Virus record (IMG/VR): IMGVR_UViG_3300045988_005712
Location: 1 to 5,528 of that record
Source: a virus
DNA length: 5,528 nucleotides
Direction: 5' to 3' (one strand)
Program-made: the position numbers and the translations under genes
Shown here: in pieces, positions 120 to 5,106 of the stretch
Layout of the letters: the number at the start of each line of letters is the position of its first letter
Position numbering within the stretch: position 1 is the first letter of the stretch
The notes under the pieces: model-generated
What the model was told of the DNA's origin: nothing
Database searches by the model: none
Seen by the model: the letters and a program-made list of their open reading frames with translations, nothing else

Positions 120-160
120 CCGAACCCGAAGCAACAGAAGTAACGGAGGCTAAAGAGTGA
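2..160 (+). CDS. VP3: 3' end of the VP3 internal scaffolding gene; redundant copy plus the true C-terminus of the ORF that starts near 5084 and wraps the circle
   Basis: Frame 2 is open from the window edge: WDEVPKDIKLKFDNDVDKFIASFGSVEWAKNLGIYQEKKAEPEATEVTEAKE, then TGA at 158..160. The stop overlaps the VP1 GTG start as GTGA (157..160). Confidence 0.8.
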   Translation, partial: WDEVPKDIKLKFDNDVDKFIASFGSVEWAKNLGIYQEKKAEPEATEVTEAKE

Positions 161-1797
161 ACAGAAACAAAGACGCAGGATTCAATCAAGTCCCACGGCT
201 GGACATTACACGAAGTCGCTTCAAGAGGCGGCAGGATGTAAAGCTCACGCTCAATGCTGGACAGCTTATTCCGTTCTACGTGGATGAAGTGCTCCCGGGT
301 GATACCTTCAGTATCGATCAGGCAGCAATTATCCGTATGACGACACCTATCTTCCCGGTTATGGACAACTGTCACATGGATATTTACTACTTCAATGTAC
401 CCTGCCGTATCATCTGGGACCACTTCAAACGATTTATGGGCGAAAATGATGCCGGTCCGTGGGCACAGACTCAGGAATACTTCATCCCGCAGGTCAGAGT
501 AACTGGCACAGCCGACAAGCCGGCACCTTATGAAGGAAGCATCATGGACTACATGGGCATTCCTACCAAGGTGAGCAGAGGAACTGATAGTGCATTCACC
601 ATTAATGCACTGCCATTCAGAGCCTACGCCATGATCTGGCAGGAGTGGTTCCGAGACCAGAACGTAGACAATCCGGCCATCAACAGCACCACAGACGCGA
701 CCATAGACTATAAGGACGATGAAACAAAGGGCATGGACGCGGAAAAGCCGGATTTGGAGTACATCCTTCAGAACGCATACACGGGCGGCAGACCGCTGCC
801 AGTGAATAAGTACCACGACTACTTCACATCGGCTCTGCCATCCCCACAAAAAGGGCCGAATGTGCAGCTCCCATTAGAGGGAAACGCTGCAATATTCGGA
901 TACAGTGACTACAAAAGGACAAAGATGAGCAACCCGTCGGCAGTCGGGGGGTTACAAAACCAGAACATCCCGCTTGGAGTTGTAGGGACCAGTCCCAAAA
1001 ACGAGCCAGTATACTTAGGCGCAAGGATGGATAATGTAACGTCCGCAACCGTCAATCAATTACGACAGGCATTTCAAGTTCAGAAATACTATGAGCAGCT
1101 GGCACGAGGCGGCAGCCGCTACCGCGAGATGATTTATTCGCTGTTCCACACCAAAATCAGCGACAAGACGGTACAAATTCCTGAGTACCTAGGCGGAACA
1201 CGCATCACTATCAACATGAGTCAGGTCATCCAGACCAGCGGCACAACCACAGAGAGTCCGCAGGGCAACGCAGCAGCAATAAGTGTTACGCCGTACAACG
1301 GGAGCATGTTTACGAAGAGCTTCGAAGAGCACGGCTATGTTATCGGCGTGTGCTGCATCCGGCATGACCATACCTACCAGCAGGGCTTGGAACGCATGTG
1401 GAGCCGCAAAACCAATCTGGATTTCTATTATCCAGTCTTTGCAAACCTGGGAGAGCAAGCTATTCTGAAGAAGGAGCTATATCTCACTGGTACGAGCACT
1501 GATGAACAGGTCTTTGGTTATCAGGAAGCTTGGGCAGAATACCGAATGAAACCGAACCGCATCAGCGGCAAGTTCCGTTCGAATGCAACGGGGACGTTGG
1601 ACAGCTGGCACTACGGCGACAACTACAAAGAGACTCCGAGCCTGAGTCAAGCATGGATGAAGGAAGGAGACTCTGAAATTCAGAGAACTTTGGCCGTGGA
1701 AAACGAACCTCAGTTTATCATAGACACCGTCATCGACAATACATCTGTGAGGCCGATGCCAATGTACAGCATTCCGGGTCTCGTGGACCATCACTAA
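157..1797 (+). CDS. VP1: Major capsid protein VP1 (Microviridae F-like capsid, gokushovirus type), 546 aa
   Basis: The translation carries blocks I recognise from gokushovirus/Chlamydia-phage VP1: FNQVP, LIPFYVDEVLPGDTF, TPIFPVMDN, LPFRAYAMIWQEWFRDQN, KYHDYFTSALPSPQKG and VNQLRQAFQVQKYYEQLARGGSRYRE. The GTG start is preceded by GGAGG at 145..149 (7-nt spacer). The first in-frame ATG would delete conserved N-terminal blocks. Confidence 0.95.
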   Translation: MNRNKDAGFNQVPRLDITRSRFKRRQDVKLTLNAGQLIPFYVDEVLPGDTFSIDQAAIIRMTTPIFPVMDNCHMDIYYFNVPCRIIWDHFKRFMGENDAGPWAQTQEYFIPQVRVTGTADKPAPYEGSIMDYMGIPTKVSRGTDSAFTINALPFRAYAMIWQEWFRDQNVDNPAINSTTDATIDYKDDETKGMDAEKPDLEYILQNAYTGGRPLPVNKYHDYFTSALPSPQKGPNVQLPLEGNAAIFGYSDYKRTKMSNPSAVGGLQNQNIPLGVVGTSPKNEPVYLGARMDNVTSATVNQLRQAFQVQKYYEQLARGGSRYREMIYSLFHTKISDKTVQIPEYLGGTRITINMSQVIQTSGTTTESPQGNAAAISVTPYNGSMFTKSFEEHGYVIGVCCIRHDHTYQQGLERMWSRKTNLDFYYPVFANLGEQAILKKELYLTGTSTDEQVFGYQEAWAEYRMKPNRISGKFRSNATGTLDSWHYGDNYKETPSLSQAWMKEGDSEIQRTLAVENEPQFIIDTVIDNTSVRPMPMYSIPGLVDHH

Positions 1798-1938: not shown

Positions 1939-2745
1939 ATGGGATTAGCAGCAATCGGCAGCGCACTACTCGGAATCGGCAAACAACTACTCCCAACGAT
2001 CGCCGGAGGACTCATAAACAAATTCCTAGGCGGAAACCTGATGGAAAGCAATGGAGGGAGCACACAGCACAACGAAAGCACAAGCCAAGGAGGCGGCTAC
2101 AGCAGCGCCGCCAGCGGCGTAAACCGAGAACAAAACCTGCAAGACTGGAACAGCATGCTAGGGGCAATTCAAAGCAATATGCAAAGCCAGCAGAAGTTTA
2201 ACCGTAAAAGCATGTTCGAGCAAATGGGCTATAACACCATGGCAGCAATCACTCAGGGTGTATATAACCAGATAAGCAACAACGCAGCAATGTCCTACAA
2301 CAGCGCAGAAGCAGCCAAAAACAGAGCTTGGCAAGAGCAAATGAGCAATACAGCTTATCAGCGAGCTGTGGAAGACATGCGAAAAGCAGGAATCAACCCT
2401 ATCTTAGCATACCAACAGGGCGGAGCGAGCACGCCGGGAGGCGCACAAGGCACTATCAGCGGGGCAAGTATGGGTCTCGCAAGCAGTAGTGCGGCGACCG
2501 CAAGTGCTCTGGGAGTAAGTCAGAACCACAACAACACATGGAGCAAAAGTGAAAGCAACTGGTACAACGCAGCGCAAGCAGTTGGAGACGCAACAAGCTG
2601 GTCCCACACAAGCGCAGACAAAGCGTTAAAGGCGTTCGAAAACGTTCTGGGCCAGCTAGGAAACCTTACAAGCGACAATTCCAAAGACGGTTCAACGAAA
2701 GACAAAGACGGCTTTGGGGGAAGCAAAGGGGGCAAATTTAAATAA
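1939..2745 (+). CDS. VP2: Minor capsid / DNA pilot protein VP2, 268 aa
   Basis: Hydrophobic Gly/Ala/Leu-rich N-terminus (MGLAAIGSALLGIGKQLLPTIAGGLI), S/G/A/Q/N low-complexity body, and the block NTAYQRAVEDMRKAGINPILAYQQGG typical of gokushovirus VP2. Its position between VP1 and VP4 is the canonical one. There is no obvious SD; the start sits in the T-tract of the upstream terminator. Confidence 0.88.
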   Translation: MGLAAIGSALLGIGKQLLPTIAGGLINKFLGGNLMESNGGSTQHNESTSQGGGYSSAASGVNREQNLQDWNSMLGAIQSNMQSQQKFNRKSMFEQMGYNTMAAITQGVYNQISNNAAMSYNSAEAAKNRAWQEQMSNTAYQRAVEDMRKAGINPILAYQQGGASTPGGAQGTISGASMGLASSSAATASALGVSQNHNNTWSKSESNWYNAAQAVGDATSWSHTSADKALKAFENVLGQLGNLTSDNSKDGSTKDKDGFGGSKGGKFK

Positions 2746-3764
2746 TGGGGTGCAACAAGCCATTAATTCGGTTTTATGTGCCTCATGACAGAGAAGCGAG
2801 TGGGCGAGTGTACTCACTCGCTTCTTTCAACGAAATTCATAAAACCAAAATCCAGTATGAAGACCTGATGTACCGCAAAGATGTAATGATGATACCATGC
2901 GGACAATGCACAGGATGCAAACTACGCAAGCGCAAAGACTGGGCAACACGAATGGAGCTGGAAGCATACAACCACGACAAGGAAAGCATCTGGTTTATCA
3001 CGTTAACCTATGATGACGACCACGTACCAACACAGGACACAGAAACAGGGGAAATCTTCAAGGGAGGCGTAAACGTATGGAGAGACGCCTCAGAGCGTCC
3101 CAGAACGGTGCAAACTTTAAACGTGGAGGATGTCCAGTTATTCATGAAAAGGCTTAGAAAGGCCGTCAGCGGGCCTCTCAGATACTTCTTAACCGGAGAG
3201 TATGGAGACAACACCTCAAGACCACACTATCACATGATACTATACGGATGGTATCCGGACGACTTAAAGCCAATTCACAGGCTGTCAAGGTTTGGACACT
3301 ACACGAGTGATAAACTGGTCAAAGTCTGGGGACAAGGGACGGTTGACATAGCTCAGGCAACGCCGGAAACGTATAATTACGTAGCTGGATATGTGACCAA
3401 GAAGCTGTACGGAAACGACAAGGACAAGTACAAGAAAATGGGACTCATACCGCCATTCTGCGTAATGAGCCGAAAGCCAGGACTCGGAGATGAATGGTTC
3501 CAAAAGAACCAAGAAAGGCTATGGCAACTTGGATACATCCAGCTGACAAACGGCAAAAGAGCAGCAATTCCAGAATATTATTGGCGAAAGCTGGAAGCTG
3601 AAAATCCTGAAAAGGCGTGGAGAATCAAGCAGTACCGGCAAGAAAAAGCCATTGCATCCCTAATCGAAAGAAACATGGAAACTGACAAACGGTATGCCGA
3701 ACAACTGGCCGATAAAGAAGCAGTCATGAAGAAGAAGATGTCCAAAGCAAAGGGCGTTTTTTAG
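2745..3764 (+). CDS. VP4: Replication initiation protein VP4 (HUH rolling-circle endonuclease, phiX174 A-like), 339 aa
   Basis: RCR motif I FITLTY (nt 2994..3011); HUH motif PHYHMILYG (HYHMILYG = nt 3225..3248); two-tyrosine motif YVAGYVTKK (nt 3378..3404, compare phiX174 A YVAKYVNK); Cys cluster CGQCTGC near the N-terminus. The ATG overlaps the VP2 stop as TAATG (2743..2747). Confidence 0.93.
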   Translation: MGCNKPLIRFYVPHDREASGRVYSLASFNEIHKTKIQYEDLMYRKDVMMIPCGQCTGCKLRKRKDWATRMELEAYNHDKESIWFITLTYDDDHVPTQDTETGEIFKGGVNVWRDASERPRTVQTLNVEDVQLFMKRLRKAVSGPLRYFLTGEYGDNTSRPHYHMILYGWYPDDLKPIHRLSRFGHYTSDKLVKVWGQGTVDIAQATPETYNYVAGYVTKKLYGNDKDKYKKMGLIPPFCVMSRKPGLGDEWFQKNQERLWQLGYIQLTNGKRAAIPEYYWRKLEAENPEKAWRIKQYRQEKAIASLIERNMETDKRYAEQLADKEAVMKKKMSKAKGVF

Positions 3765-3773
3765 CCCTGGTGT

Positions 3774-3822
3774 CACTCAGCCAAGTAACTATCAAGTATA
3801 TATACTTGGCTGAGTGTTTTTT
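3774..3822 (+). terminator. Strong rho-independent terminator after VP4
   Basis: 13-bp perfect stem CACTCAGCCAAGT (3774..3786) / ACTTGGCTGAGTG (3804..3816) followed by TTTTTT (3817..3822). The loop region also offers an alternative inner palindrome, CAAGTATATATACTTG (3793..3808). Confidence 0.8.
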
Positions 3823-3832
3823 AGGTTTATCA

Positions 3833-3878
3833 GCACGCGCACGCACGCGCACGTAATCGCGCACATGCGCGCGCGATT
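3833..3878. repeat. GC-rich alternating purine/pyrimidine tract: tandem GCACGCGCAC x2 (3833..3852) plus inverted repeat AATCGCGC (3855..3862) / GCGCGATT (3871..3878)
   Basis: Direct reading of gcacgcgcacgcacgcgcacgtaatcgcgcacatgcgcgcgcgatt. It consists almost entirely of CG/CA/TG steps and abuts a pure A/T tract. Confidence 0.8.
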
Positions 3879-3910
3879 TTTATTATTTTATTATTTATTT
3901 ATTATTTACT
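3877..3910. promoter_or_regulatory. A/T tract with only one C (TTTTATTATTTTATTATTTATTTATTATTTACT); candidate DNA unwinding element
   Basis: 34 nt with a single C (3909) and no G, built of reiterated TTATTT units. It lies between the GC tract and the phased TAG repeats. Confidence 0.5.
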
Positions 3911-3930
3911 TGTTGTAGTCGTAGTAGTAG
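3910..3930 (+). repeat. Seven phased T-N-G trinucleotides (TTG TTG TAG TCG TAG TAG TAG), read 3'-to-5' as GAT GAT GAT GCT GAT GTT GTT; DnaA-trio-like element
   Basis: Direct reading. It is followed by GGG (3930..3932) and preceded by the A/T tract. This is the order GC cluster / 3'-GAT-5' trios / AT-rich region known from bacterial oriC unwinding modules. Confidence 0.45.
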
Positions 3931-3962
3931 GGAGTGTTGAAATGTTGAAAACTATAAATATC

Positions 3963-3978
3963 TATCGTTAGAACGATA
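3963..3978. promoter_or_regulatory. 16-bp palindrome TATCGTT-AG-AACGATA (operator-like dyad)
   Basis: 7-bp arms separated by 2 nt. That loop is too short for a hairpin, so a dimeric protein-binding site on dsDNA is the more likely reading. Confidence 0.35.
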
Positions 3979-3981
3979 TTT

Positions 3982-3990
3982 TGTGGTTAA
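3982..3990 (-). promoter_or_regulatory. DnaA box variant TTAACCACA (one mismatch to TTATNCACA)
   Basis: The + strand reads TGTGGTTAA, preceded by ATTTT like the other two boxes. Confidence 0.5.
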
Positions 3991-4008
3991 TTTTGATGTT
4001 GAAAATTT

Positions 4009-4017
4009 TGTGGATAA
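4009..4017 (-). promoter_or_regulatory. Perfect consensus DnaA box TTATCCACA
   Basis: The + strand reads TGTGGATAA, whose reverse complement is TTATCCACA, the high-affinity E. coli R1/R4-type box. Confidence 0.6.
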
Positions 4018-4046
4018 CTTGTTGAATTGTTGAAAGTGTAGCAATA

Positions 4047-4066
4047 TGCACAAAACCATTTGTGCA
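4047..4066 (+). other. Perfect hairpin TGCACAAA-ACCA-TTTGTGCA inside the iteron/DnaA-box array
   Basis: 8-bp stem and 4-nt loop, read directly. It lies 6 nt upstream of the third DnaA box. Confidence 0.6.
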
Positions 4067-4072
4067 ACTTTT

Positions 4073-4081
4073 TGTGGAAAA
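4073..4081 (-). promoter_or_regulatory. DnaA box variant TTTTCCACA (one mismatch)
   Basis: The + strand reads TGTGGAAAA. It is part of a 22-nt composite repeat, TTTTGTGGAAAACCTGTTGAAA (4070..4091), which matches TTTTGTGGATAACTTGTTGAAT (4006..4027) at 19 of 22 positions. Confidence 0.5.
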
Positions 4082-4126
4082 CCTGTTGAAAGTGTTAAAA
4101 GTGTTGAAAACTCGAATTAAAGGCAA

Positions 4127-4192
4127 TCCGGCGAGCGAAACCGGAAAGTTACGTCATGCTCTTCGTACGGCGCACCGCGCCTAGCGCATGAC
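4127..4192 (+). other. GC-rich hairpin cluster; candidate ssDNA priming signal (complementary-strand origin)
   Basis: Hairpin 1: TCCGG (4127..4131) / CCGGA (4141..4145) with a 9-nt loop. Hairpin 2: outer stem GTCATGC (4153..4159) / GCATGAC (4186..4192) enclosing inner stem GGCGC (4169..4173) / GCGCC (4177..4181) with loop ACC. No ORF overlaps it, and it is a GC island in an AT-rich spacer. Confidence 0.4.
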
Positions 4193-4210
4193 CTTTTAGA
4201 TTAAATGCAC

Positions 4211-4239
4211 AAAAGAGGCTTGACGAGCCTCTTTTTTTT
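4211..4239 (+). terminator. Rho-independent terminator (potentially bidirectional: A-tract upstream, T8 downstream)
   Basis: AAAAGAGGCT (4211..4220), loop TGACG, AGCCTCTTTT (4226..4235), with the T-run extending to 4239. Confidence 0.55.
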
Positions 4240-4248
4240 ATATATACT
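4220..4248 (+). promoter_or_regulatory. Sigma70-type promoter TTGACG-17 nt-TATACT, likely driving the small-ORF/VP3/VP1 operon
   Basis: -35 TTGACG (4220..4225) and -10 TATACT (4243..4248), each matching consensus at 5 of 6 positions, with the optimal 17-nt spacer. The -35 lies in the loop and 3' arm of the terminator hairpin. Confidence 0.55.
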
Positions 4249-4348
4249 AAAGGCAGTCAAACAGCACAGAAGTGCATTTAACAAATTCCATTTTTACAAA
4301 AATAACTTTACAAAGAGGTGAACTGTTCTGACTCTCCAAGAAATCAAG

Positions 4349-4432
4349 ATGCTGTTTGAAAACATCCAAAAAATCCTTGCCATGCTAGACAAAATCTACC
4401 ACACAGTAACAGGGAACAAACCGGAGGCTTGA
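4349..4432 (+). CDS. Possible 27-aa leader ORF (MLFENIQKILAMLDKIYHTVTGNKPEA)
   Basis: ATG..TGA, with the stop 1 nt before the next ATG (4434). There is no SD in front of the ATG. An AGAGGTG (4314..4320) is positioned instead for an in-frame CTG at 4328. Too short to judge. Confidence 0.25.
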   Translation: MLFENIQKILAMLDKIYHTVTGNKPEA

Positions 4433-4869: not shown

Positions 4870-5106
4870 ATGAACGTATACGGAATTTTCGATAAATGCG
4901 TGATGGGTTACATCACCATCTTTACCGAACGCGACGACAAAGTGGCCGAACGCAATTTTAAAATCGCACTGACTGATGAACGAAACATCATGAGCAAGAC
5001 CCCGAGCGATTACCGGCTGGTAAAGCTGGCAAAATTCGACGAGAAAACGGGCCTGTTTGAGAATGAAAAGGAGAACATCTTCGATGGCGTATCGCTCAGT
5101 AAGTAA
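4870..5106 (+). CDS. Small nonstructural protein, gokushovirus VP5-like, 78 aa
   Basis: AAGGAG (4858..4863) lies 6 nt before the ATG. The pattern VYGIFD...ERDDKVAERNF...TPSDYRLVKLAKFDEKTGLF resembles the small conserved VP5/ORF5 family as I recall it (Y-I-D ... A-R-F ... P-DY-L ... FD--TG). The family assignment is from memory only. Confidence 0.55.
   Translation: MNVYGIFDKCVMGYITIFTERDDKVAERNFKIALTDERNIMSKTPSDYRLVKLAKFDEKTGLFENEKENIFDGVSLSK

Follow-up and report, generated by a model that had tools for sequence, protein, structure and literature searches.

Why should a virus that replicates by a rolling circle carry what looks like the unwinding half of a bacterial chromosomal origin? The Microviridae are textbook examples of rolling-circle replication driven by a Rep protein, and we know of no need for the bacterial initiator DnaA among them. 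The window analyzed here, the whole 5,528-nucleotide (nt) stretch of IMG/VR record IMGVR_UViG_3300045988_005712, represents a circular microvirus genome; the genome measures 5,409 nt, and the other 119 nt are a terminal redundancy. Its sole long noncoding stretch (approximately positions 3765 to 4330) contains a module, at 3876 to 4110, in which a first-pass annotation made from the sequence alone saw an oriC-like, DnaA-recruiting unwinding system composed of an A/T tract, phased trinucleotides, a G cluster, and three DnaA boxes in the same orientation. All of these elements are in place and in the canonical order. Comparison with bacterial origins and with other microvirus genomes indicates that the module is very probably a DnaA-binding element of the basal unwinding system (BUS) type. 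We favor the further reading, with a probability of roughly 0.6, that it is a BUS-type mimic of the host origin that would recruit DnaA, load helicase, and support Rep-independent replication of the double-stranded replicative form (RF).

Elements of the module

The module (approximately 235 bp) consists of the A/T tract, seven phased trinucleotides, a GGAG spacer, and eleven co-oriented 9-mers of the form TGT[G/T]GA[A/T]AA (Table 1). The three trinucleotides nearest the boxes (TAG TAG TAG, 3922 to 3930) are consensus DnaA-trios, 3'-GAT-5', and five of the seven phased triplets at 3910 to 3930 read NAG. The boxes that were recognized first, TGTGGTTAA at 3982 to 3990, TGTGGATAA at 4009 to 4017, and TGTGGAAAA at 4073 to 4081, are reverse-complement boxes on the + strand, each after TTTT and all in a single orientation. 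No other site in the genome comes within one mismatch of TTATCCACA. The heptamer TGTTGAA occurs seven times, always on the + strand between 3935 and 4108, and is found nowhere else on either strand.

These motifs are confined to this region of the genome and are far denser than expected by chance. Among 5,000 dinucleotide shuffles of 3877 to 4110, boxes with at most one mismatch averaged 0.13 (three observed; P = 4e-4), TGTTGAA averaged 0.25 with a maximum of 3 (seven observed; P < 2e-4), and the phased TAG-like run averaged 3.3 (8 observed; P = 1e-3).

In the published BUS model, DnaA on two co-oriented boxes nucleates an ATP-dependent oligomer that crosses a short spacer rich in G and extends, on one strand, along the 3'-GAT-5' trios, leading to strand separation and melting of the A/T element. 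Distal boxes increase the local DnaA concentration by looping, and in a cryo-electron microscopy model DnaA contacts the G residues of the spacer. A BUS has been defined by a box with at most two mismatches within 16 bp of at least three trios and a second box with at most four mismatches; the spacer averages 4 bp, and the box-to-trio distance peaks at 10 to 13 bp (PMC8287927). A search that we modeled on the published BUS program, with the same criteria, returned a single site that has three or more consensus trios, and none of 300 composition-preserving shuffles yielded such a site. The box of this site, TGTTGAAAA at 3943 to 3951 (reverse complement TTTTCAACA, two mismatches to TTATCCACA), lies 12 bp from the first trio. 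A second, weaker box, TGTTGAAAT at 3935 to 3943, stands in tandem on the trio side, shares 1 nt with the first, and is likewise oriented toward the trios. The spacer of approximately 4 bp is G/C rich (GGAG, 3931 to 3934), a pure A/T run of 33 nt lies beyond the trios, and distal box subregions are present as the clusters at 3997 to 4036 and 4073 to 4110.

The region had been described as free of open reading frames (ORFs). It is indeed noncoding, but it does contain short ORFs of 52 amino acids (aa) on the − strand and 40 aa on the + strand, which are an expected by-product because TTTTCAACA repeats are stop free in every frame. A protein-coding reading was rejected, since the repeats explain the ORFs and identical arrays are noncoding in bacteria.

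The core of the module in bacterial dnaA-dnaN origins

We scanned bacteria, one genome per species, with the pattern GTAGTAGTAG-N4-5-GTKGAAA-N1-2-GTTGA, for which a rough estimate gives fewer than one expected chance match. The pattern matched at least 120 bacterial contigs. Of the 120 matches listed, 111 are flanked by DnaN and/or the C terminus of DnaA, and 72 have both. The order in those loci is dnaA, boxes, spacer, trios, A/T-rich DNA, dnaN. The viral trios lie on the same strand and the same side of the boxes as in the 111 listed origins and in Clostridioides difficile oriC2, and the viral A/T tract, distal to the trios, matches the position of the A/T-rich stretch before dnaN. The core TAGTAGTAG-N4-TGTKGAAA-TGTTGAAAA is almost diagnostic of a dnaA-dnaN origin across several phyla. 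Matches came mostly from Oscillospiraceae, Ruminococcus, Acutalibacteraceae, other gut and rumen Clostridia, and Selenomonas, with a few from distant phyla, a spread that marks the core as a widely conserved origin element.

The likeness extends from the core to the box architecture. In 31 TGTTGAA-rich origins, approximately 27 of which are labeled Ruminococcus, Oscillospiraceae, Eubacteriales, or Clostridia, the remaining boxes are likewise TGTTGAAA(A), with 7 to 14 such boxes per 300 nt. Viral boxes lie at offsets of +0 to 20, +60 to 100, and +130 to 180 nt from the trios, and the 31 origins have about the same offsets (third cluster at approximately 120 to 180); a box-free gap from +20 to +60 is common to both. 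Variant use is also similar, TGTTGAAAA making up 33% of the viral boxes versus 43% in the TGTTGAA-rich origins and TGTTGAAAG 25% versus 24%. TGTTGAAA(A) (TTTTCAACA) thus seems to be the main box of Ruminococcus/Oscillospiraceae origins, and the viral copy appears to use the variant typical of that group. The exact core at 111 or more bacterial dnaA-dnaN loci, together with this shared box architecture, supports the original proposal of an oriC-like unwinding module in a rolling-circle microvirus. A reservation attached to that proposal, that the TGTTGAAA iteron adjoining the trios is no canonical box, falls away: TGTTGAAA(A) dominates those origins, and in the Bacillus subtilis BUS the trio-proximal box is likewise nonconsensus and overlaps its neighbor. 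We know of no prior description of the TGTTGAAAA/TTTTCAACA variant; the literature was not effectively searched for it, and looking for TTTTCAACA and TGTTGAAAA as strings brought up nothing but irrelevant papers of the primer type.

How the virus came by the module is a separate matter. The core, approximately 40 nt, is 88 to 94% identical to many dnaA-dnaN origins (e.g., loci L162, L159, L240, and L151). The best longer bacterial match covers 198 nt at 69%, and there is no long colinear identity with the sampled origins. Bacterial origins lack two features of the viral module described below, the TTGTTG signature and a GC-rich block, and those of Ruminococcus, Oscillospiraceae, and Eubacteriales often carry extra boxes at +200 to 260. 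We rejected recent capture from a host, because only the core is highly similar to any sampled origin and the viral copies share signatures that bacteria lack. The earlier idea of a captured host oriC fragment therefore stands as an old acquisition or a mimic and not as a recent event. In the simplest history, the viruses would have acquired the module once, long ago, or converged on the host origin, and would then have inherited and exchanged it among themselves under constraint from an unchanging host protein. As for integration at the host origin, no locus with two cores was found among the 120 bacterial loci listed (at most 8 kb each).

Conservation of the module among microviruses

We assembled a viral set from blastn against GenBank and from pattern scans and a VP1 search of IMG/VR. 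Blastn found the region in 39 GenBank gokushovirus records, some of them otherwise little alike in DNA, and at least 148 distinct microvirus genomes carry the module. The same module is present in a pair of lineages with just 34% identity in VP4 and 40% in VP1. The core form with five TAG repeats occurs in 81 of 2.9 million IMG/VR contigs, all of them microvirus sized (4.3 to 6.3 kb). Host dnaA-dnaN regions and other Microviridae had been named as places where relatives might be found, and the core occurs in both. One locus, L213 (CAVKUS010000079.1, 5,739 nt), is binned as Bacteroides sp. CAG:545; a 211-nt stretch matches 3894 to 4100 of the window at 76%, a 329-aa ORF unlike DnaN takes the place expected for dnaN, and the locus is probably a microvirus contig in a bacterial bin.

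The common viral order is an A/T tract, A(C/T)TTGTTG-TAG-NNG-TAG-TAG-TAG, a spacer of 3 to 5 nt that is often G rich, and two 9-mers overlapping by one base; beyond this proximal pair come a variable spacer of approximately 40 nt, four boxes, a hairpin, and three or four boxes. In 83 modules from among the matches listed, box columns are 85 to 95% or more conserved and spacers drift, a pattern that argues for selection on the boxes and not on the spacers. The conserved sites are the iterons and the positions of the boxes at 4009 and 4073. The spacer from 3952 to 3996 is poorly conserved and its box, TGTGGTTAA at 3982, is lineage specific. Of the three boxes that the first-pass annotation had listed, two are thus borne out by position, but the one at 3982 to 3990 is not conserved in relatives. 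Because TGTGGAAAA, TGTTGAAAA, TGTTGATAA, and TGTGGATAA interchange at homologous positions in relatives, the "iterons" and the "DnaA boxes" form one motif class, TGT[G/T]GA[A/T]AA; many relatives even have TGTGGAAAA, a one-mismatch box, next to the trios.

Other features distinguish the viral modules from bacterial origins. The signature of the TTGTTG extension, TTGTTGTAG, that is, A(C/T)TTGTTG (3908 to 3915 in the window), is present in 147 of 148 viral modules versus 1 of 114 bacterial origins, and it inverts along with the module. The commonest spacer is GGAG in the viruses and GGGC or GGGG in bacterial origins. Counted from the boxes, the fourth trio is variable across the 148 viral modules, and the others are nearly invariant.

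Among 61 VP1 relatives, 55 carry the module and none shows a genuine loss; the other six are contigs that end in or near the module or partial genomes. Linear IMG/VR contigs L272, L286, L287, and L271 end within or beside the repeat-rich module, and naive circularization of such contigs mimics a deletion of it, an assembly pitfall for this clade. A natural minimal module is found in KT264799.1 (L361; complete, 5,179 nt) at 385 to 495, where a hairpin, 27 nt of A/T-rich DNA, five TAG trios, GGAG, and two boxes are present and the distal clusters are missing.

The module also occurs in both orientations. In 16 of the 83 listed genomes it lies inverted with respect to the coding strand, and so to the packaged strand, and the gene order becomes VP1, VP2, boxes, trios, A/T tract, hairpin, VP4. 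This inversion makes action on the double-stranded RF most likely, rather than a role on the packaged strand. It also speaks against the box/trio module as the Rep nick site, which would be fixed in orientation. In the inverted lineage (L018, L025, L046, L051, L070, L084, L131, and others), VP4 starts with MPCT(K/N)P, and the hairpin just ahead of the VP4 start is formed by GGTGTCAAC and then GGCACAAG-ATAGACAAGGAAG-CTTGTGCC.

A proposed role for host DnaA

Given the observed identity, arrangement, and conservation of these motifs and their equivalence to bacterial origins, the module contains every sequence element that a BUS requires, and we infer that host DnaA acts on the viral RF as it does on a chromosome. 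DnaA would bind the eleven co-oriented boxes on the double-stranded RF, with the middle and distal clusters raising its local concentration. DnaA-ATP at the overlapping proximal boxes (3935 to 3951) would oligomerize over GGAG onto the TAG trios of one strand, and the oligomer would melt the adjacent A/T tract at 3876 to 3909. The resulting bubble would load the host replicative helicase, allowing Rep-independent RF replication and possibly episomal maintenance, and rolling-circle replication by VP4 would still be required for progeny single-stranded DNA (ssDNA). As a side effect, a multicopy RF with 9 to 12 boxes would draw DnaA from the host origin. In the literature searched, no paper tied gokushoviruses or any other microvirus to DnaA boxes or trios, beyond incidental co-mentions of DnaA, and nothing came up on oriC-like elements with DnaA boxes in phages.

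A bolder extension is that this large clade of gut gokushoviruses might be "viruses with a chromosome origin," whose RF would persist as a minichromosome-like episome in Ruminococcaceae/Oscillospiraceae, timed to the host cell cycle, in a nonlytic carrier state without integration, and whose switch to VP4-driven rolling circle would make virions. We offer this only tentatively and consider it rather doubtful.

Several points weigh against a host-origin mimic. The virus has only the oriC2-like half of an origin, with no oriC1 partner; autonomous replication in B. subtilis requires both origin halves, and unwinding in vitro in C. difficile needed oriC1 besides oriC2. Many relatives have only a short A/T tract (median length of the pure run, 13 nt). 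A reverse box that is common at +50 to 70 in Ruminococcus, Oscillospiraceae, and Eubacteriales origins is absent from the viral modules, which have extras beyond the BUS model in the TTGTTG extension, the GC-rich alternating block, and the adjacent hairpin. TGTTGAAAA differs from TTATCCACA at a usually conserved position, and its standing as an Oscillospirales DnaA box is deduced from where it lies in dnaA-dnaN origins. All that is proposed here on DnaA binding, unwinding, helicase loading, and the consequences for the life cycle comes from sequence comparison. To our knowledge, microviruses need no second mode of replication.

Alternative roles of the module

DnaA could instead open the DNA for Rep. 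Melting of the A/T tract would then extrude the strand-specific hairpin at 3774 to 3816, with its loop CTATCAAGTA, or lay it bare as ssDNA, for + strand nicking by the HUH endonuclease VP4, and no theta replication would follow. HUH Rep proteins require a single-stranded substrate, as this idea supposes. The hairpin region, which spans 3768 to 3816 with GGTGTCAC, varies in its stems among relatives and keeps its loop, where the motif CTATCAAG lies at 3789 to 3796. Of the 67 same-orientation genomes, 65 carry CTATCAAG on the coding strand, and none of the 83 carries it on the other, so the hairpin keeps its orientation, whereas the module occurs in both. Moreover, in either gene arrangement the hairpin flanks the module on its A/T-tract side, approximately 27 to 31 nt from the trios in minimal versions, and the two co-occur in the clade. 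A pattern scan for GGTGTCA...CTATCAAG beyond the clade gave mostly chance matches, with true hairpins only in module-bearing genomes; hairpin and module are therefore not separable by such a scan. Where the A/T tract meets the trios, the virus-specific A(C/T)TTGTTG further suggests action by a viral factor. The hairpin is a candidate site of Rep recognition or rolling-circle (+) origin, or a candidate terminator.

Other evidence runs counter to an opener. Adjacency in two independent arrangements, the only ones that exist, could have arisen by chance (1 in 2). Approximately 95 nt separate hairpin and trios in the window, and the intervening GC-rich alternating block would resist spread of the bubble. 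This block, present in 68% of 148 viral modules versus 1% of 116 bacterial origins, is possibly a clamp that limits the bubble or a former of Z-DNA or cruciforms. Full distal clusters that copy the host origin exceed what a local opener would need. We know of no rolling-circle system that depends on DnaA, nor of an established nick site for gokushovirus VP4, and a search of the gokushovirus literature found none. On balance, we judge an opener role unlikely. AACTTG, which resembles the phiX174 origin core, CAACTTG, was considered as the Rep nick site and rejected as unsupported; it flips strand along with the module. The complement of the hairpin loop, ACTTGATA, is identical to the phiX174 origin core but would be on the wrong strand.

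The array could also serve as a DnaA sink that titrates host DnaA onto the multicopy RF and so blocks or delays host initiation, or that tunes the nearby viral promoter to the level of DnaA-ATP, with no start of replication. Each genome copy has eleven boxes, B. subtilis incC on plasmids inhibits chromosomal initiation, and the boxes lie just upstream of a promoter at 4220 to 4248. Titration, however, needs boxes only, whereas conservation extends to the trios, the 4-nt spacer, the overlapping pair, and the A/T tract, all in exact unwinding geometry. In KT264799 the distal boxes are gone and the unwinding core remains, contrary to what a sink predicts, and in the inverted lineage the boxes follow the VP2 terminator instead of preceding a promoter. 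A sink as the sole role is improbable.

A third possibility, raised at the outset as DnaA-dependent primosome loading, is an origin for the complementary strand, at which DnaA on the incoming viral strand would assemble a primosome in the manner of the R6K "A site" and convert ssDNA to RF. The packaged strand does carry the 5'-TAG-3' trio strand in the window and in 67 of the 83 genomes, and an imperfect pairing of 4006 to 4016 with 4045 to 4055 (91% complementary) could place the perfect box in a stem. That pairing, however, competes with the perfect hairpin at 4047 to 4066 and is absent in relatives without the box. All boxes are co-oriented, which leaves no duplex boxes in ssDNA, and 16 of the 83 genomes package the opposite strand of the module. 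As a single-strand origin, the conserved block at 4114 to 4193 is also the stronger candidate. Priming on the packaged strand is thus disfavored, and we regard it as very improbable. The 4114 to 4193 block, which adjoins the module outside the BUS, has very high identity across 37 loci and no Rfam match. Its outer stem, GTCATGC/GCATGAC, shows two compensatory pairs in L054, and the block is a candidate complementary-strand origin or small RNA.

Finally, direct repeats beside an A/T tract resemble iteron plasmid origins, but iterons for a virus-encoded initiator or regulator are scarcely credible when the gene set offers no candidate binding protein and the motif is common to viruses with 34% identical VP4 and to bacterial chromosomes without such a virus, and a chimeric assembly with host DNA, the other reading that we put at this level, is excluded because independent assemblies, well over 100 of them and drawn from several countries and databases, have the module at the same site.

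Genome context and host

The gokushovirus genome has the standard gene set, VP1, VP2, VP4, VP5, and VP3 plus small ORFs, all on the + strand (Table 1). Its relatives are Gokushovirinae from feces of humans, pigs, monkeys, and others. The module lies between VP4 and the small-ORF block, and the genome has neither dnaA nor dnaN; VP4 is context for the module and not a component of it.

Table 1. Features of the window, with the module first, then its neighbors and the genes
Feature	Position	Strand	Details
A/T tract, putative DNA unwinding element (DUE)	3876-3909	.	33 consecutive A/T bases, 3876-3908
Phased trinucleotides TTG TTG TAG TCG TAG TAG TAG	3910-3930	+	
GGAG spacer, trios to boxes	3931-3934		
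Proximal tandem boxes	3935-3951	+	TGTTGAAAT (3935-3943, 3 mismatches) and TGTTGAAAA (3943-3951, 2 mismatches)
Variable spacer	3952-3996		small hairpin 3965-3978; one-mismatch box TGTGGTTAA 3982-3990
Middle box cluster	3997-4036	+	TGTTGAAAA 3997, TGTGGATAA 4009 (perfect), TGTTGAATT 4020, TGTTGAAAG 4028
Perfect 8-bp hairpin between box clusters	4047-4066		TGCACAAA-N4-TTTGTGCA; inverted repeat and fold
Distal box cluster	4073-4110	+	TGTGGAAAA 4073, TGTTGAAAG 4084, TGTTAAAAG 4093, TGTTGAAAA 4102
Strand-specific hairpin directly after VP4 stop	3774-3816	+	GGTGTCAC ahead; conserved loop CTATCAAGTA; 19-nt arms, 89% complementary; folded
GC-rich alternating purine/pyrimidine block	3833-3875		CGCGCACGCACGCGCACG...; one repeat family and three inverted repeats
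Conserved GC-rich structured block	4114-4193	+	two hairpins, 4130-4148 and 4153-4192
Terminator-like hairpin overlapping sigma-70-type promoter	4211-4248	+	AGAGGCT-TGACG-AGCCTCT then T8; TTGACG-17-TATACT
VP1, major capsid protein	157-1797	+	Pfam Phage_F
VP2, pilot protein	1939-2745	+	
VP4, rolling-circle replication initiator	2745-3764	+	Pfam REP_ORF2-G2P, E = 4.7e-18; PHROG 942 replication initiation protein, E = 2e-112
Small ORFs, then VP5	VP5 4870-5106	+	
VP3	spans circular junction	+	

The −35 hexamer of the promoter at 4211 to 4248 is partly inside the loop of the overlapping hairpin. The promoter itself, at 4220 to 4248, drives the downstream genes, and relatives keep TTGACA-17-TATAA(C/T). 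Strong Shine-Dalgarno sites (AAAGAGGTG) lie downstream of it. Sites of this kind and a sigma-70-type promoter fit a Firmicute-like host, and together with the origin similarity they suggest a member of the Ruminococcus/Oscillospiraceae group.

Several smaller observations concern the rest of the window. L010, L012, L013, and L014 have a different hairpin, TTCGTCA-AAA-TGACGAA, in place of that at 4047 to 4066. A small conserved reading frame at 4328 to 4432 (...MLFENIQKILAMLDKIYHTVTGNKPEA) is unannotated in the records examined; it has no ATG in the relative L001 and may use a noncanonical start codon. The VP1-VP2 intergenic region (1861 to 1937) contains repeated CAGCTGAGG hairpins and a GC-rich terminator-like hairpin. 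An Rfam scan of the whole window gave a single subthreshold match, to anti-hemB at 1861 to 1937 (23.8 bits versus a gathering threshold of 49.5), which is probably chance, and none in the module. Blastn of 3765 to 4340 against a plasmid database gave no match, so the module is not a known plasmid origin.

Significance

A complete host-type origin conserved in at least 148 genomes, if the proposed role is correct, would amount to a second, host-initiator-dependent step in Microviridae replication. According to published work, gut Microviridae rank with the most stable members of the personal virome, and CRISPR spacers tie some of them to Clostridiales. A host-type origin would offer gut microviruses a mechanism for long-term persistence without an integrase, and a carrier-state episome, if real, would explain the persistence of Microviridae in the human gut virome. 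We know of no isolated host for these uncultured viruses; the module predicts one among the Oscillospirales and could be used in choosing strains for isolation. With it, TGTTGAAAA (TTTTCAACA) emerges as the likely dominant origin box of an important gut clade. The natural unit, approximately 200 bp, may serve as a minimal origin and could aid the construction of vectors for genetically intractable gut Clostridia.

Comparison with known systems

The closest structural match is the BUS of B. subtilis incC and C. difficile oriC2, the unwinding half of the Firmicute origin, which has proximal and distal box subregions. Work on the B. subtilis incC BUS is reportedly due to Richardson (2016/2019) and Pelliciari (2021, 2023). 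Like these, the viral module has two co-oriented overlapping boxes with the better match farther from the trios, a G-rich spacer of approximately 4 nt, at least three consensus trios, an A/T-rich element, and distal box subregions. It differs in its location on a 5.4-kb ssDNA rolling-circle phage, in boxes that are mostly TGTTGAAA(A) and not TGTGGATAA, in the missing oriC1 partner, and in the added TTGTTG extension, GC-rich alternating block, and strand-specific hairpin by the A/T tract. Lying elsewhere than between dnaA and dnaN, and without an oriC1 cluster, it is best described as an oriC-type module on a virus and not as an oriC.

Iteron theta origins (P1 oriR, pSC101, RK2, and F) combine repeats, DnaA boxes, and an A/T-rich region on a small mobile replicon, and DnaA helps in opening and in helicase loading. 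Those plasmids need their own iteron-binding Rep, whereas the viral repeats appear to be the DnaA boxes themselves, trios are present, and the genome encodes no initiator for the repeats. The phiX174 PriA assembly site and the DnaA-box hairpins of R6K and pBR322 (the ABC primosome) are strand-specific hairpins on ssDNA. The viral module resembles them as a noncoding site on a small ssDNA replicon that would recruit host initiation proteins for helicase loading, but it has no duplex boxes in ssDNA: its boxes are all co-oriented, their sole pairing is imperfect, unconserved, and in competition with another, and the module is inverted in 16 of 83 genomes. Occurrence in either orientation likewise separates the box/trio module from a Microviridae (+) origin.

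The nearest functional analogues would be laboratory minichromosomes. Plasmids built on oriC or incC share with the proposed viral episome a small circle, a DnaA-type origin as the sole theta origin, and incompatibility with the host origin through DnaA titration. Those constructs are artificial, whereas the virus would be a natural case, in which such an origin coexists with a rolling-circle Rep.

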